Of a stretch of 19,389 nucleotides of DNA, positions 117 through 3,354 are shown in pieces. The position numbers and the translations under genes are program-made. The notes beneath the pieces were generated by a model that saw nothing but the letters and a program-made list of their open reading frames with translations, was not told where the DNA came from and searched no databases. Position 1 is the first letter of the stretch. Every line of letters begins with the position of its first letter. The DNA comes from Vulcanimicrobiaceae bacterium (GTDB lineage: Bacteria; Vulcanimicrobiota; Vulcanimicrobiia; Vulcanimicrobiales; Vulcanimicrobiaceae), in contig JBHEMM010000041.1 of assembly GCA_046262595.1 (NCBI GenBank), positions 1 through 19,389 on the forward strand, written 5' to 3'.

Positions 117-200
117 TGCGCTCGACGGGATTTGAACCCGCACGGGTTAGGGCCCACTAGGATGACAGCCTAGCGCGTCTACCGATTCCGCCACGAGCGC
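117..200 (-). tRNA. Class II tRNA with a tRNA-Leu body and GUC (Asp) anticodon
   Basis: Reverse complement: GCGCTCG TG GCG-GAATCGGTAGA-CGC G CTAGG-CTGTCAT-CCTAG TGGGCCCTAACCCGT GCGGG-TTCAAAT-CCCGT CGAGCGC A. All stems pair. It is 84 nt with a 15-nt variable arm, anticodon GTC at 166-164 and discriminator A. It is followed by CTA, so CCA is not encoded. Confidence 0.93.
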
Positions 201-206
201 GAGATC

Positions 207-247
207 CAAAGGGGAAGGACGGTTTAGGGATCGGACCTTCCCCTTTG
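207..247. terminator. Perfect 12-bp inverted repeat (weak terminator or RNA processing stem)
   Basis: CAAAGGGGAAGG (207-218) pairs with CCTTCCCCTTTG (236-247) around a 17-nt loop. It lies between the ORF stop (265) and the tRNA 5' end (200). The U tract is short on both strands. Confidence 0.55.
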
Positions 248-264
248 CCTTGAATAAGATAGGG

Positions 265-1020
265 TTACATCGGCGGTTCCTCGGTCATCAGCGCGAATGT
301 GCCGTCCGGGCGGGTGTCAATCCGGCGCCCCTCCTGCCGCTGTTGATAGATGAGCGTAGCTAAGGATTTATCGGGATTATTGCTACCGGCAAGATAGCCT
401 TGCGCCTTCAACTGCTCTATCAACTGATCGCCCTTCGCCCCTGAAGCACCGAACCCCAAGAGGACTTCCCGCAAGGCATCGCCCGCACGTTTGTAGTTTG
501 AGCCGTAGCGGCCGGGCGGCTGCTTTTGCGCTGGCCGACCGTTTGAATGCGCCGGGGCCGCAGTCATCGCCGATCCCGCCCAGCGCCAATACCCACGACC
601 CTGCCGCCGAATCGGCTTCTTCTTTAACTTCAAGTTGTTGAGAGCGTTCCTAACCGCGTTGACCGGGCTTTTAGCGGCCGTCGTAAAACCACGGCCCCGC
701 AGCTCCGCCTCGATGTCCTCGGCGGTCATCCGCCTTCCGCCGGCCGCCTTCAAGACATCAAAGACGGCGTCCTGAAAGGTTTCTGGGGCACGCGGTGCGG
801 CGGAGTGATTGGAGCCGGAACCTGAAGTATGAACCGAGGCCATAGATTCAAGTTGCCGGACAAGGCGCTGGCGGAGCTCGATATTGGATGCAATAATGGC
901 CCGCTTCTCACGAAGGAATTGAAGTTGCCGCTCAGCATCGGCTATATCGCGCTCGACGAGCTTCAGGTCGTACTCCGTTTGCTGTAGTTCGGCGCGCGCG
1001 TTTTCCGGGGTTTCCACCAT
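265..1020 (-). CDS. Hypothetical protein: N-terminal coiled coil plus two winged-HTH (HARE-HTH-like) domains
   Basis: 251 aa. SD-like AGGTAGGTGA precedes the ATG and a consensus promoter lies upstream. Residues ~5-60 are a heptad-like coiled coil. Two similar modules follow: TFQDAVFDVLKAAGGRRMTAEDIEAELRGRGF...SPVNAVRNAL...IRRQGRGYWRW and AGDALREVLLGFGASGAKGDQLIEQLKAQGY...NPDKSLATLI...IDTRPDGTFAL. Confidence 0.75.
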   Translation of the reverse strand: MVETPENARAELQQTEYDLKLVERDIADAERQLQFLREKRAIIASNIELRQRLVRQLESMASVHTSGSGSNHSAAPRAPETFQDAVFDVLKAAGGRRMTAEDIEAELRGRGFTTAAKSPVNAVRNALNNLKLKKKPIRRQGRGYWRWAGSAMTAAPAHSNGRPAQKQPPGRYGSNYKRAGDALREVLLGFGASGAKGDQLIEQLKAQGYLAGSNNPDKSLATLIYQQRQEGRRIDTRPDGTFALMTEEPPM

Positions 1021-1079
1021 GTTTTCACCTACCTGGATAGGGCGAGTGCCGCGTACTGGGCCGCCCTCCCGCTGGGGGC

Positions 1080-1108
1080 ATTCTACACCCTGTTAGGCGA
1101 ACAGTCAA
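1080..1108 (-). promoter_or_regulatory. sigma70-type promoter for the wHTH gene and the downstream tRNA
   Basis: Minus strand TTGACT (1108-1103), 17-nt spacer, TAGAAT (1085-1080); about 60 nt upstream of the ATG at 1020. Confidence 0.75.
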
Positions 1109-1276: not shown

Positions 1277-1344
1277 GGGCCGGGTCTTGGTAGCGGCAAG
1301 GTCTCCAAAACCAACGCGAGTGGGTTCGACTCCCATCCGGTCCA
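1277..1344 (+). tRNA. Degenerate tRNA-Trp(CCA)-like gene with short D arm (possible pseudo-tRNA)
   Basis: Acceptor GGGCCGG/CCGGTCC and T arm GTGGG-TTCGACT-CCCAT are intact. Anticodon arm AAGGT-CTCCAAA-ACCAA has CCA at 1305-1307 but only 3 bp pair, with two A.A mismatches. Only 14 nt separate the acceptor and anticodon stems. No encoded CCA end. Confidence 0.7.
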
Positions 1345-1347
1345 GCA

Positions 1348-1481
1348 GGGCAATGGCTGTCCACGGGCACGGCTGTTGAAGCGGGGCTGTTGGTGCGAGG
1401 AGATCAGCCCTTCCCTAATTTTACTCTGGGATGATATGATGTGCCCGGAGACCTTGTCGCGGGCCACGCCCGTTTCAAGCC
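1348..1481 (+). ncRNA. Candidate structured non-coding RNA between the tRNA-like gene and the terminator
   Basis: Helices found by hand: 1351-1360/1369-1378, 1383-1389/1405-1411, 1364-1370/1441-1447, 1376-1385/1469-1478, 1460-1464/1468-1472. No credible ORF and no family recognised. Confidence 0.35.
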
Positions 1482-1515
1482 AAAGAGCCAGGCGAACAAC
1501 GCTTGGCTCTTTTTT
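1482..1515 (+). terminator. Rho-independent terminator
   Basis: AAAGAGCCAGGCG-AACAA-CGCTTGGCTCTTT stem-loop running into T6 (1510-1515). Confidence 0.85.
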
Positions 1516-1707
1516 GTGCAGATAACCGACTTATTAGGCAGGCAGGCTTTCCTGGGCAAAGCCGCGTCAGATATATCATCTTGACACTTGTCAAGGTGAC
1601 ACGTCTATTGGTCTATTGCTGTATTGCCCGGCCCGGGTGGTCGTTACCGTGCGCCACTGAGCCTCAGCCACCGTTACGCACGTCGCGTCCTGGGCAACAT
1701 TGCCGCT

Positions 1708-2715: not shown

Positions 2716-3354
2716 ATGGCTGACACAAAACACAGTTTGCAAACCTATATTAGCGACATGCTTGCGCTCGAAGAGCACGTGCGCGTGCCGTTCGAGGCGC
2801 AGCTGAAGGACGAGGACCTTTCATCGTATCCCACGGCGCAGACGCTGCTGCGCCGCCTATCCGACCTATCGAACACGCACATCGACGCGCTCAAGAACCT
2901 GCTCGAGCAGTACGGCGGGCACGAAGCGCATCCGGTAAAGGGAGCCGTCAGCGCGACGGCGGGCTTCTTCGCAAGCGCTATCGACAAAGTGCGGAAAACG
3001 GCGGTCGCGAAGGGTCTTCGCGACGACTACACGGCGCTTTCGCTCTGCACCGTTTCCTACAGTATGCTGCTTTCCACCGCAAACGCGTACGGCATGCCCG
3101 ACGTCAGCGCGCTGGCGCAGCAGCATATGCGCGACTATGCGCAGCTCATCATGGAAATCGGAACGGCCATACCGGAGATCGTCGTGTACGATCTTCAGCA
3201 AACGGGACTGGATGCGGACCCGTCGAGCGTCTCCGAAAGCGTTTCGCAAATCGAGTCGACGTGGCGCAGCAGCGCAAGTTCGGAACGCGGCCAAATCACG
3301 ACCGGTTCGATCGGCTCAGGAGCTACGCCGAGCCAAACGTCACGACCGGTTTAA
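2716..3354 (+). CDS. Ferritin-like four-helix bundle protein (DUF892/YciF-like stress protein)
   Basis: Helical protein with YISDMLALEEH, H-IDAL and LRDDYTAL...Y.ML, plus a Ser/Gly-rich tail. Its 3' end overlaps the convergent gene by 32 nt. Confidence 0.7.
   Translation: MADTKHSLQTYISDMLALEEHVRVPFEAQLKDEDLSSYPTAQTLLRRLSDLSNTHIDALKNLLEQYGGHEAHPVKGAVSATAGFFASAIDKVRKTAVAKGLRDDYTALSLCTVSYSMLLSTANAYGMPDVSALAQQHMRDYAQLIMEIGTAIPEIVVYDLQQTGLDADPSSVSESVSQIESTWRSSASSERGQITTGSIGSGATPSQTSRPV

Follow-up and report, generated by a model that had tools for sequence, protein, structure and literature searches.

A protein gene with HARE-HTH-like domains recurs beside anticodon-swapped tRNAs: a possible mobile cassette for low-level mistranslation

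Few bacterial systems of natural, encoded mistranslation are known, the main ones being tRNAProX/ProRSx and the allo-tRNAs. The locus described here bears on the question why mistranslating tRNAs are retained by cells or mobile elements. Near one end of the window (the whole 19,389-nt stretch of DNA that was analyzed) a promoter, a protein gene, a hairpin and a tRNA whose anticodon does not suit its body lie together on one strand (Table 1). The reading preferred here, which stands at about an even chance, is that 117–1108, probably together with 1277–1518, forms a mobile, self-regulated cassette that produces low-level Asp-to-Leu misreading.

When the locus was re-checked, all four elements were found where the original prediction had placed them. 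The near-consensus promoter that it had aimed at the 251-aa ORF (P0001), running from 1108 to 1080 on the minus strand, matches 10 of the 12 consensus positions in the promoter scan, and 1–1700 contains two promoter-like sites of such quality versus 0.6 ± 0.8 expected from 50 shuffles. The distance from the P0001 stop codon to the start of the odd tRNA was re-measured and is 64 nt, as had been claimed, with both on the minus strand. The hairpin between them has two 12-nt arms (207–218 and 236–247) that are 100% complementary; its fold is worth -22 kcal/mol (z -2.7), none of 200 shuffles was as stable, and its end lies 6 nt from the 5' end of the tRNA. A simple terminator scan of 1–1700 gave no intrinsic terminator. 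Since the space before the tRNA is too short for a separate promoter, we infer that the tRNA most likely comes from the same transcript as P0001; RNase P would release it, and the hairpin would stay behind to protect the 3' end of the P0001 mRNA as a cap. The palindrome CTGTT-N5-AACAG in the promoter spacer is a 5-bp inverted repeat and by itself weak evidence for an operator. By eye, three related cassettes (L095, L036 and L099) likewise have palindromes within or close to their putative promoters.

Table 1. Features at the start of the window, with coordinates and the basis on which each was assigned.
Feature	Coordinates	Strand	Remarks
Convergent ORF, 3' end, cut by contig start	1..87	+	read from sequence
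Intact class II tRNA, leucine-type body, anticodon GUC	117..200	-	84 nt, without encoded CCA; Rfam, ARAGORN
12-bp GC-rich hairpin without U-run	207..247	-	between P0001 stop codon and tRNA
ORF P0001, 251 aa	265..1020	-	coiled coil plus two HARE-HTH-like winged-helix domains
Shine-Dalgarno-like AGGTGA	1025..1030	-	5-10 nt 5' of the ORF ATG; read from sequence
Sigma-70-type promoter-like site TTGACT-17-TAGAAT	1080..1108	-	points at the 251-aa ORF; promoter scan
Palindrome CTGTT-N5-AACAG, candidate operator	1090..1104	.	within promoter spacer; by eye
Divergent tRNA-like gene	1277..1343	+	7-bp acceptor stem, G3:U70, A73; cloverleaf by eye
Segment complementary to 1293-1306	1447..1460	+	14 nt, 93%; same strand as tRNA-like gene
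Intrinsic-terminator-like hairpin plus T run	1482..1518	+	13-nt arms, 92%; predicted to end the tRNA-like transcript

The tRNA matches Rfam RF00005 over its full length (1–71) and scores 60.1 bits where 29 is the gathering score; ARAGORN labels it 'Asp (gtc)', 85 nt. All of its stems are fully paired, the acceptor stem with 7 bp and the T stem with 5 bp; the extra arm of 15 nt with a 3-bp stem makes it a class II tRNA with a long variable arm, and the anticodon loop reads CUGUCAU in the assembled sequence, giving GUC. The discriminator is A73, and the D arm is of the Leu type (A14, A15, G18-G19 spacing), being that of the Leu tRNAs of the same genome. A73 and a Leu-type D arm are identity elements for leucyl-tRNA synthetase (LeuRS). 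Identity to tRNA-Leu of its own genome is 0.73 and 0.70, versus 0.60 to the normal tRNA-Asp that this genome also encodes, and the best match in relatives was tRNA-Leu in all nine fetched loci. The predicted conflict between a class II, A73, Leu-type body and the anticodon GUC is therefore real. The long variable arm, A73 and Leu D arm of tRNA-Leu are all present with GUC in place of NAG or YAA, and because of that anticodon the molecule is not classed as a leucine isoacceptor. A tRNA-Asp belongs to class I, its variable loop is short and it carries G73 and C38, whereas the window tRNA shares with it the anticodon GUC and has a class II body, A73 and U38.

The window tRNA is most likely charged with leucine, because it bears leucine identity marks and LeuRS is blind to the anticodon; at GAC and GAU codons it would in that case be a rival of the normal tRNA-Asp, so that some Asp would be misread as Leu. 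According to sections of PMC11415595 and PMC7609411, the synthetases for Leu, Ser and Ala recognize their tRNAs independently of the anticodon. The cassettes have bodies of just those three types, namely Leu-type, Ser-type and, in the tRNA-like gene of the window, G3:U70. Aspartyl-tRNA synthetase (AspRS), however, leans strongly on GUC, the anticodon being its main identity element, and Asp could therefore account for part or the whole of the charging. The tRNA might then be a harmless class II-shaped Asp tRNA, an AspRS substrate that gives the element or the host extra capacity to decode Asp codons, a reading that is quite unlikely. Leu-type GUC tRNAs do occur in stable chromosomal lineages, which suggests a low cost, and GUC is among the commonest allo-tRNA anticodons in sections of PMC5389517 and PMC7609411, but A73 in place of G73, U38 in place of C38 and the long variable arm all run against the aspartate identity rules, and a normal tRNA-Asp is already encoded in the genome. 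Moreover, the sister cassettes described below bear Pro, Leu, Ala and Ser anticodons on Leu-type, Ser-type or other non-matching bodies; what unites them is therefore the mismatch, and not a supply of Asp.

 

The pattern scan for a Leu D arm with a CUGUCA loop covered GTDB species genomes, viral DNA and metagenomic DNA, and yielded 60 loci (19, 1 and 40, respectively); ARAGORN called a class II GUC tRNA in 40 of them (41 genes), from many phyla. Across 33 of those 40 loci, the window included, 20 of the 24 stem pairs show compensatory changes and, judged from these sequences, the Leu-type GUC tRNA is a maintained kind. Several of its lineages lie amid housekeeping genes, on alphaproteobacterial, Gemmatimonadales and Planctomycetes contigs. 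A decaying passenger, in which a captured tRNA-Leu drifted to GUC beside an unrelated regulator, is disfavored as highly improbable. It would suit the single close protein homolog (P0002), the degenerate second tRNA-like gene of the window and the broken tRNAs among the pattern hits, 20 of the 60 loci having no callable tRNA, but the stems of the window tRNA are intact, the order of protein gene and tRNA is repeated with the hairpin in independent loci, and GUC, which differs from any Leu anticodon at two positions at least, is nevertheless found in 40 loci with compensatory stem changes. When 401 genomes in each of two phyla were scanned for Leu-type D arms combined with an anticodon of any kind that lacks A35, a narrow pattern that misses the D arm of L095 and all tRNAs with G37, intact tRNAs were found only in the window and in L028, both with GUC. 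The other seven hits were rejected as interrupted tRNA-Leu 5' halves or coding sequence, and none matched group I intron models at the gathering score.

The original prediction had proposed a protein-plus-tRNA module, and pairs of this sort were sought from both sides. From the tRNA side, a profile of the protein family was run against all ORFs of the 60 pattern loci. L028 has a relative (E 1e-8) whose ORF ends 48 nt 5' of the tRNA on the same strand, L036 has one that lies 159 nt 5' of its tRNA, again on one strand (E 5.7e-5, with a second copy at E 7.9e-5), and in L050 the relative (E 3e-3) is divergent from the tRNA; in L038 a protein of look-alike architecture precedes the tRNA by 60 nt, with weak homology (hhalign E 0.015). 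From the protein side, relatives were found in 23 other loci of 401 genomes of the window's phylum, and an odd tRNA lies within about 200 nt in four of the 23. These are a Leu-type body with anticodon UGG (Pro) 22 nt downstream on the same strand (L095), a Ser-type body with G73 and anticodon UAG (Leu) about 20 nt downstream (L084), another Ser-type tRNA with UAG 8 nt downstream, under the Rfam gathering score and with a cloverleaf by eye (L099), and a class I tRNA with anticodon AGC divergent from the protein gene (L091). In Chloroflexota the protein was matched in 58 of 401 genomes, and among 30 loci examined odd tRNAs are present at L106 (the L028 locus), L125 (AGC, divergent) and L134 (a 75-nt GCU tRNA, upstream); ordinary tRNAs lie near relatives in just two of the 30 (L119 and L135), which is about the chance rate. 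The protein-side searches in the two phyla thus contributed six further odd-tRNA loci (L084, L091, L095, L099, L125 and L134).

Counting as a pair any P0001 relative within about 200 nt of an odd tRNA, the window is joined by nine loci, and by L038 on architecture only. In seven loci ORF, (hairpin) and tRNA follow one another in this order on a single strand, and a stable hairpin occupies the equivalent place in all five Leu-type cassettes that were folded, none of 200 shuffles being as stable; its position is kept among cassettes and its sequence is not. The scan of homologs for adjoining mismatched tRNAs, which had been proposed as a check, therefore came out in favor of the module: the odd tRNAs and the ORF-hairpin-tRNA order recur, and chance adjacency is countered by pairs in independent loci of several phyla, reached from both search sides. 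Pairing is frequent and not obligatory, because most relatives (19 of 23 loci in the window's phylum and 25 of 30 in Chloroflexota) have no adjoining tRNA and the Leu-type GUC tRNA has no such protein alongside in 36 of 40 loci. Across the window and ten related loci, then, Leu- and Ser-type tRNAs of standard geometry with swapped anticodons recur with one protein family, which offers a handle on odd tRNAs overlooked by tRNA finders.

The predicted structure of P0001 (mean pLDDT 86.6) has a helix at 5–65 and winged-helix units at 82–147 and 179–244, and so contains both the coiled coil and the two winged-helix modules that had been read from the sequence; the N-terminus is predicted to form an antiparallel coiled coil at about residues 4–61. 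The HARE-HTH assignment stands at the level of the family: P0001 itself scores 14.1 bits with PF05066, under the Pfam cut-off of 25.9, whereas 4 of 26 distant relatives (P0003, P0004, P0015 and P0024) pass it with 40–49 bits, and the nearest ESM Atlas cluster has HARE-HTH in 38% of its members. The two winged-helix units of P0001 are HARE-HTH-like in fold and family; the coiled coil and the tRNA neighbor are not among the features described for that family. Consistent with the earlier failure to recognize a catalytic motif, Pfam, PHROGs and PADLOC searches with P0001 gave no catalytic family, PHROGs returning nothing but coiled-coil noise (E >= 0.14) and PADLOC-DB 2.0 no family at E <= 1. Foldseek of the model against the PDB returned generic tandem winged-helix proteins and nothing at E <= 0.001, and its weak rows (E 0.007 to 0.2) include the RNA-binding winged-helix proteins SelB and LOTUS domains. 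The one close homolog, P0002, is 50% identical, and a metagenome scan with the P0001 and P0002 alignment gave 256 pattern matches, of which none was confirmed.

P0001 is predicted to be a dimer. The modeled homodimer has an ipSAE of 0.67 versus 0.01 for the best control, at least 85% of contacts agree among three runs with a partner pLDDT of at least 76, and the predicted interface is an antiparallel helix pair formed by residues 4–61. In calibration the ipSAE mark was reached by 20 of 30 pair-solved versus 1 of 23 single-chain-solved proteins, counts that are only rough for P0001, for which a custom alignment was the input. In the preferred reading, a strong promoter would drive the gene for this small dimeric coiled-coil/tandem winged-helix (HARE-HTH-like) protein, which most likely would be a DNA-binding autoregulator that sets the dose; its binding to DNA and the role of 1090–1104 as operator are both guesses, and RNA is also a possible ligand of winged-helix domains.

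The surroundings of the relatives go beyond what the original prediction foresaw. A DDE_Tnp_IS1595 gene adjoins relatives in 5 of 16 scanned loci of the window's phylum and 2 of 17 of Chloroflexota, plus L036, and IS1595 transposases are adjacent in L036, L083, L085, L090, L091, L125 and L134. In L095, 20-nt inverted repeats (95%) span 2.78 kb and hold two ORFs, the protein gene, the tRNA and an IS1595 transposase. A possible transposon inverted repeat (82%) in L036 ends 11 nt before the tRNA, which would therefore sit just outside the element, and L038 adjoins a transposase of another type (DDE_Tnp_1/SWIM). Members of the IS1595 family known as 'transporter IS' carry passenger genes, and the cassette resembles such cargo in that its relatives adjoin IS1595 transposases (Pfam PF12762/PF12760) and the L095 cassette lies inside 20-nt terminal inverted repeats. 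The cassette is regarded as a probable passenger of mobile elements, chiefly of the IS1595 type: it would travel as transposon passenger DNA, mainly of that family, and transposons would move a pair of fixed layout (ORF, hairpin, tRNA) between phyla. Use of the tRNA as an integration (att) site was considered and ruled out, since tRNA sites are not targets of DDE transposons and the tRNA of L095 is inside the inverted repeats.

In the window itself no transposase or element end is visible, the contig stopping 116 nt beyond the tRNA. A search of its 89.7%-complete assembly for an IS1595 transposase (PF12762) gave no match. The window copy nevertheless looks acquired, because the region was not found in 40 relatives (which match only via their own tRNA-Leu genes), synteny with genomes of the same genus begins only at about 1697, and GC across 1–1600 is 0.53–0.63 against 0.627 for the genome.

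Besides transposases, frequent neighbors of the relatives are AbiE, restriction-modification genes, SocA/Panacea and PIN-domain genes. Such defense and addiction neighbors are what would be expected near a toxin-antitoxin or abortive-infection switch, in which a stable mismatched tRNA is a translation poison that P0001 represses or sequesters until loss of the element or phage attack frees it. The fixed order of protein and odd tRNA fits this reading too, as does the benefit that a mobile element would draw from an addiction module; it is rather unlikely all the same, as P0001 has no PADLOC match and no known toxin or antitoxin domain, and Leu-type GUC tRNAs persist in 36 of 40 loci with no protein, some in housekeeping settings, which is hard to square with lethality of the unguarded tRNA. 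Of similarly low probability is the more specific idea of a codon-poisoning device, in which Leu-charged tRNA at Asp codons is the toxin and the P0001 dimer its gatekeeper; the sister tRNAs would then hit Pro, Leu, Ala or Ser codons. If true, this would be a toxin-antitoxin system with a tRNA as toxin, and IS1595-type transposons would use the pair for addiction or for translation-wrecking abortive infection. The cassette is about 1 kb and clonable, and would allow regulation and toxicity of mistranslating tRNAs, and their usefulness to mobile DNA, to be put to the test.

Several known systems share parts of this anatomy. The nev-tRNAs of nematodes are class II, Leu-type, carry Gly or Ile anticodons and are leucine-charged, and thus resemble the window tRNA in combining a Leu-type body with a non-leucine anticodon and an anticodon-blind LeuRS; unlike the cassette, they are eukaryotic nuclear genes with neither partner protein nor mobile context. 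The allo-tRNAs and 'irregular tRNA polycistrons' of soil bacteria (Mukai 2017) are described, in sections of PMC5389517 and PMC7609411, as class II-like, with long extra arms and mismatched anticodon and identity, with GUC as one of their three commonest anticodons, and as neighbors of toxin-antitoxin or transposon-related genes in soil metagenomes. The long V arm, mismatched anticodon, GUC and reliance on an anticodon-blind synthetase are common to both, whereas the allo-tRNAs, in those same sections, have 8/4 or 9/3 geometry (a 12-bp acceptor branch) and serine identity, and the window tRNA is 7/5 and leucine-type. In sections of PMC5389517, two of six engineered allo-tRNA variants were lethal to E. 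coli, the one outside hint at toxicity of such tRNAs, and some irregular tRNAs were charged in vitro and not used in translation; its main text does not contain 'helix-turn-helix', 'HTH', 'transposase', 'IS1595' or 'tRNALeu'. The tRNAProX/ProRSx pair of Streptomyces and Kitasatospora, as presented in sections of PMC11415595, has a tRNA-Pro body with anticodons AGC, AUU and AGU. It too is an encoded bacterial tRNA of hybrid identity with a dedicated neighbor gene, and tRNAProX mistranslates sense codons; its partner, however, is a synthetase paralog, whereas that of the Leu-type window tRNA is a non-catalytic coiled-coil/winged-helix protein, and no tRNA-synthetase domain occurs among the 17 ORFs of the window. 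Literature searches judged by title and start of abstract gave, among the papers listed, no pairing of HARE-HTH with tRNA and nothing relevant on mistranslating tRNAs carried by insertion sequences or on IS1595 with tRNA and passenger; a search on Leu-type GUC tRNAs found nothing, and one on isotype-mismatch surveys found nematodes only.

The divergent tRNA-like gene at 1277–1343 has an anticodon loop CUCCAAA (CCA, Trp) and a good T arm; its D arm is degenerate and its anticodon stem weak, its best Rfam match is tRNA-Sec with 27.4 bits, under the gathering score of 47, and ARAGORN called no tRNA there. It is probably part of the same cassette as P0001, because the odd tRNAs of L091 and L125 are likewise divergent from the protein gene. 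The stretch 1293–1306 is the 5' side of its anticodon arm, and in the minimum-energy fold of 1265–1530 (z -3.4) it is paired with 1447–1460; similar anticodon-arm complements lie 55–59 nt past the odd tRNAs of L091 and L125. These complements look regulatory and not translational, and would suit tRNAs that do not decode at all and act as RNA cofactors or regulators of transposition, or as decoys for anticodon-loop nucleases, with P0001 as an RNA-binding partner or transposition regulator. The weak Foldseek rows with LOTUS domains and SelB point the same way, as do the irregular tRNAs that, in sections of PMC5389517, are charged yet unused in translation. This reading is nonetheless doubtful. 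The class II tRNAs keep their cloverleaf, the T-loop consensus and a discriminator that fits the body (A73 in Leu-type, G73 in Ser-type), which points to selection for aminoacylation, and their anticodon-arm complements are not above those in shuffled flanks except in the window, where a marginal complement of 12/14 compares with a shuffle maximum of 11.

Comparison of 1021–1620 of the window with the other cassettes gave short, chance-level sequence matches only, and a likeness to L099 upstream of the tRNA-like genes, noticed by eye, was dropped. No further tRNA-like elements were found upstream of the protein genes in eight cassette loci at Rfam E <= 5. The hairpin at 1482–1518 is absent from the list produced by the simple terminator scan. 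At the other edge, the 28-aa ORF end at 1–84 belongs to no Pfam family and by eye its C-terminus shows no likeness to those of three IS1595 transposases; the final 28 residues of this ORF carry a CPKC...W zinc-ribbon-like motif.

The tRNA close to the contig end combines the anticodon loop CUGUCAU, giving the anticodon GUC, with a class II body that has a 15-nt extra arm and the discriminator A73. Its D arm matches that of the leucine tRNAs of the same genome, where its closest relatives are tRNA-Leu(CAG) and tRNA-Leu(GAG) (global identity 0.73 and 0.70). No leucine anticodon is fewer than two changes away from GUC, so the mismatch is unlikely to stem from one sequencing error or one mutation. 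A benign tRNA charged with Asp would agree with the anticodon, and we consider it decidedly improbable for this gene, which is only 0.60 identical to the genome's normal 77-nt tRNA-Asp(GUC) (contig C6). Searched against 40 relatives, the region matches through its tRNA alone, and the nine loci fetched from them all hold ordinary tRNA-Leu genes (six CAG, three GAG); the tally over relatives takes in three genomes flagged as unpublished (G011, G023 and G036), G023 being the source of L007, one of the nine. The source genome also carries two different tRNA-Sec genes (C22:39385-39478 and C62:4644-4737) and doubled tRNA-Phe(GAA), tRNA-Cys(GCA) and tRNA-Pro(GGG) genes that differ in sequence; these are either real duplicates or the product of an assembly mixing two strains.

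Promoter, ORF, hairpin and tRNA, the four elements of the original prediction, were all found as described (see the table). Sites like this promoter number two in 1-1700, against 0.6 ± 0.8 in shuffles. The hairpin (folding energy -22 kcal/mol, equalled by 0 of 200 shuffles) has no U-run, and a terminator scan finds none there; it ends 6 nt ahead of the tRNA, leaving no space for a separate promoter between them. Contig C41, which the window covers from end to end, belongs to a 2.42-Mb assembly (122 contigs, 62.7% GC, completeness 89.7%), and the tRNA ends only 116 nt from position 1. From ~1700 onward the window is filled with housekeeping genes, among which there is no tRNA synthetase.

Features of the window and odd tRNAs beside relatives of its 251-aa protein P0001 at other loci
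Locus	Feature	Position	Strand	Remarks
Window	Promoter-like site TTGACT-17-TAGAAT	1108-1080	minus	10/12 consensus matches
Window	Candidate operator CTGTT-N5-AACAG	1104-1090		In P0001 promoter; by eye
Window	AGGTGA	5-10 nt ahead of P0001 ATG		
Window	ORF P0001, 251 aa	1020-265	minus	
Window	Perfect 12-bp hairpin	207-218 paired with 236-247		Between P0001 stop codon and tRNA
Window	tRNA	200-117	minus	Rfam tRNA 60.1 bits, gathering score 29; ARAGORN Asp(gtc), 85 nt
Window	tRNA-like sequence	1277-1343	plus	Outside the coordinates of the original prediction
Window	Terminator-like hairpin and T run	1482-1518	plus	After complementary segment
Window	Aldo/keto reductase gene; riboflavin genes	beyond ~1700		
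Window	Lysine-pathway genes: aspartate kinase, aspartate-semialdehyde dehydrogenase, DHDPS-family, DapB	beyond ~1700		
Window	UvrD-type helicase; sugar-nucleotide and glycosyl transferases	beyond ~1700		
L095	tRNA, Leu-type body, proline anticodon UGG	22 nt past stop codon		
L084	tRNA, 129-nt Ser-type body, G73, leucine anticodon UAG	~20 nt past stop		
L099	tRNA, Ser-type body, UAG	8 nt past stop		Rfam below gathering score; cloverleaf by eye
L091	79-nt class I tRNA, anticodon AGC		divergent	
L106	Leu-type GUC tRNA			Same locus as L028
L125	Class I AGC tRNA, U37		divergent	
L134	75-nt tRNA, serine anticodon GCU, U73	upstream	same strand	

Further Leu-type GUC tRNAs were sought in three collections with a pattern requiring a Leu-type D arm followed by CUGUCA at the correct distance, yielding 19 loci in GTDB contigs (one genome per species), one viral and 40 metagenomic; the taxa given in their record titles include Planctomycetes, Alphaproteobacteria, Gemmatimonadales, Dehalococcoidia/Chloroflexota, Bryobacterales and Solirubrobacterales, among others. 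A class II GUC tRNA is recognised by ARAGORN in 40 of the 60 loci (41 genes, L054 contributing two), and the other 20 are broken tRNAs or chance matches within coding sequence. In an alignment of 33 class II GUC tRNAs, the window's included, 20 of 24 base pairs show compensatory changes; these are maintained genes, with the reservation that D arm and anticodon were fixed by the search pattern. That the window tRNA is a decaying passenger, a fate suggested by the broken copies, is highly improbable; all its stems are fully paired and its T loop is standard. A looser pattern, admitting any anticodon without A35, has its sole intact case among 401 genomes of the window's phylum in the window itself and among 401 Chloroflexota genomes in L028; the seven other matches fall in coding sequence or in 5' halves of interrupted tRNA-Leu genes. 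The Leu-type GUC tRNA is thus rare, and that of the source genome looks acquired. Alphaproteobacterial, Gemmatimonadales and Planctomycetes-type contigs carry lineage-specific groups of these genes (L012, L019, L026, L050, L061, L071 and L074; L015, L025, L044, L055, L060 and L073; L011, L018, L039 and L063), which look like stable chromosomal genes, with thyA, sspB, purC, prs, glmU and formiminotransferase as neighbours and no transposase within reach.

Several of the loci have peculiarities of their own. Two Leu-type tRNA(GUC) genes differing at several positions stand in tandem in L054 (771-856 and 1026-1111, 170 nt apart), and in L028 a 72-nt tRNA-Gly(GCC) (1891-1962) follows the GUC tRNA after only 6 nt, making two tRNAs in a row. 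A second, irregular 78-nt tRNA-like gene of L016 (2399-2476), to which ARAGORN gives the label '???' and an anticodon of two bases, is close to an IS1595 transposase and separated by 470 nt from the Leu-type GUC tRNA. In L036 (2979-3095) the sequences on either side of the GUC tRNA pair with each other, extending the acceptor stem to a 21-bp leader-trailer helix (95% complementary) that resembles a processing stem. The interrupted tRNA-Leu halves (L078-L080, in three of five genomes of one genus, and L137-L139) stop directly after the anticodon-loop CUU and run on into unrelated, partly conserved sequence, to which group I intron models give no match at gathering score; L139 has a complete tRNA-Leu(UAA) ~110 nt downstream.

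P0001 has a single close homolog among 5.8 billion clusters (P0002; 50% identity, 248 aa), and HMMER, run exhaustively over 1.84 billion representatives, finds 26 proteins at E ≤ 0.001, most of which have an N-terminal coiled coil and one or two winged-helix units. The AlphaFold model of P0001 (pLDDT 86.6) has a helix at 5-65 and winged-helix units at 82-147 and 179-244, in keeping with the coiled coil and the two such units predicted originally. The assignment to HARE-HTH held in part: four of the 26 relatives pass the Pfam cut-off, while P0001 itself scores 14.1 bits against 25.9, no Pfam family being above threshold for it. Foldseek returns none at E ≤ 0.001, only generic tandem winged-helix proteins, and the nearest ESM Atlas clusters are labelled 'hypothetical protein', one with HARE-HTH in 38% of members. 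In a two-copy prediction residues 1-150 reach an ipSAE of 0.67 (best control 0.01), the runs sharing at least 85% of contacts with a partner pLDDT of at least 76; of 30 proteins solved as pairs 20 attain this mark, and of 23 solved as single chains one does, counts that apply only roughly here because a custom alignment was used. The modelling thus supports P0001 as a probable antiparallel coiled-coil dimer.

No tblastn match at E ≤ 0.01 links protein to tRNA. When a family HMM was run against all ORFs of the 60 pattern loci, relatives appeared in L028, a Chloroflexota MAG (E 1e-8; ORF end 48 nt ahead of the GUC tRNA, same strand), in L036, a viral-collection contig (E 5.7e-5; 159 nt ahead, same strand, and a further copy at E 7.9e-5 on the other side), and in L050 (E 3e-3; divergent from the tRNA); L038 has a coiled-coil/winged-helix ORF 60 nt ahead of its tRNA with weak profile support (hhalign E 0.015). 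From the protein side, a profile screen of 401 genomes of the window's phylum finds relatives in 24, and an odd tRNA adjoins them in four of 23 loci (window excluded; L084, L091, L095 and L099). In Chloroflexota 58 of 401 genomes have a profile match (the tally includes unpublished G631, none of whose loci were used), and of 30 fetched loci three have odd tRNAs (L106, L125 and L134) and two more have ordinary ones (L119 and L135), the latter about the chance level for 3.3-kb loci at an estimated ~1 tRNA per 50 kb. As odd tRNAs occur elsewhere at ~1 per several hundred genomes, the enrichment is large, these being raw counts from genomes that are not all independent. The idea of a protein-plus-tRNA module is therefore supported, odd tRNAs having been found beside relatives from both the tRNA and the protein side. 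Protein and tRNA need not occur together: no protein is present at 36 of 40 GUC tRNA loci, and 19 of 23 protein loci in the window's phylum and 25 of 30 in Chloroflexota have no tRNA.

The order ORF then tRNA on one strand is found at seven loci, the two being 8 to 159 nt apart. All five Leu-type cassettes have a stable spacer hairpin, its sequence varying by locus (z -2.7 to -6.3; equalled by none of 200 shuffles at each), which ends 6-9 nt ahead of the tRNA in four of them; the last strong hairpin of L036 ends ~17 nt ahead. In both Ser-type cassettes the spacer is too short for a hairpin. Besides Leu-type and Ser-type bodies there is the second tRNA-like gene of the window, with G3:U70, the alanine mark. 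Engineered missense suppressors are built on the logic of anticodon-blind synthetases. Leu-type and Ser-type bodies and the alanine mark belong to synthetases that ignore the anticodon (PMC11415595, PMC7609411), and this fit is the main reason for reading the cassette tRNAs as decoders. The promoter would then give a single transcript covering P0001 and the tRNA, from which RNase P would free the tRNA, the hairpin shielding the new 3' end of the P0001 mRNA; LeuRS would charge the tRNA, which would compete with tRNA-Asp at GAY codons and cause low-level Asp-to-Leu errors, and dimeric winged-helix P0001, bound to the palindrome in its own promoter, would limit the dose. We infer this whole chain, from one transcript through processing, leucine charging and misreading to autoregulation, with about even confidence; against misreading by a cassette stand the several GUC tRNA lineages among housekeeping genes and the non-obligatory pairing.

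The divergent tRNA-like sequence has a 7-bp acceptor stem with the G3:U70 pair, A73, a CCA anticodon loop and a good T arm; its D arm and anticodon stem are degenerate, ARAGORN makes no call there and the best Rfam match is below threshold. One side of its anticodon arm (1293-1306, 14 nt) can pair at 93% with a same-strand segment at 1447-1460, 104 nt downstream of the gene, and the stretch 1265-1530 folds with z -3.4. In L091 and L125, from two phyla, class I tRNAs with the uncommon anticodon AGC, divergent from coiled-coil/HARE-HTH genes, likewise have an anticodon-arm complement 55-59 nt downstream (20 nt at 95%, 1139-1158, and 14/14, 2247-2260, respectively; shuffle maximum 13). The full window cassette may thus comprise a tRNA-like gene with an antisense partner, divergent promoters, the protein, the hairpin and the class II tRNA. 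An RNA role without decoding could accommodate such complements; set beside the tRNA bodies that favour decoding, it appears unlikely.

IS1595 transposase domains lie beside protein relatives in five of 16 window-phylum loci (L083, L085, L090, L091 and L095) and, among Chloroflexota ORFs of at least 150 aa, in two of the 17 loci scanned (L125 and L134); they also occur in L036 and near the GUC-pattern loci L014, L016, L021 and L027. DDE_Tnp_1 transposases flank L029, L038, L047, L052 and L059, three with a SWIM domain. L095 contains a 2.78-kb passenger-carrying element, in which inverted repeats (20 nt, 95%; 342-361 and 3098-3117) enclose the transposase together with the tRNA, the protein gene and two small ORFs. 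A possible element end between protein gene and tRNA in L036 counts against a mobile cassette. The window shows no transposase and the 89.7%-complete assembly no IS1595 transposase, the contig breaking just past the tRNA; GC is lower over 1-1600, and DNA similarity to same-genus genomes begins only at ~1697. Other neighbours of the loci are restriction-modification, AbiE, SocA/Panacea and PIN genes, company that would suit a tRNA-toxin addiction or defence switch; PHROGs and PADLOC return nothing for P0001, and we hold such a switch to be improbable.

Literature searches returned nothing on Leu-type GUC tRNAs, IS1595-borne tRNAs or HARE-HTH proteins paired with tRNAs. The nev-tRNAs of nematodes have a Leu-type body, as does the window tRNA. 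The closest published things are allo-tRNAs and irregular tRNA polycistrons (Mukai et al. 2017, PMC5389517), which have swapped anticodons (GUC among the three commonest) and, like the cassettes here, are loosely associated with toxin-antitoxin and transposon genes; however, the window tRNA lacks the 8/4 or 9/3 geometry that defines allo-tRNAs, and in the main text of that paper HTH, transposase, IS1595 and tRNALeu never occur. The tRNAProX/ProRSx pair similarly combines a hybrid tRNA and a neighbouring partner of its own but differs in both tRNA body and partner (PMC11415595). Natural hybrid-identity tRNAs are a known kind; the conserved protein partner, the fixed operon-like layout and the transposon vehicle are new.

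Upstream of the aldo/keto reductase gene the window also contains a palindrome with 18-nt arms and a TTGACA..TGTCAA centre (1569-1606), which recurs in intergenic DNA of the same-family genome G004 (L034:496-527; 87.5% identity over 32 nt) and is possibly a native operator, or else a small repeat element.
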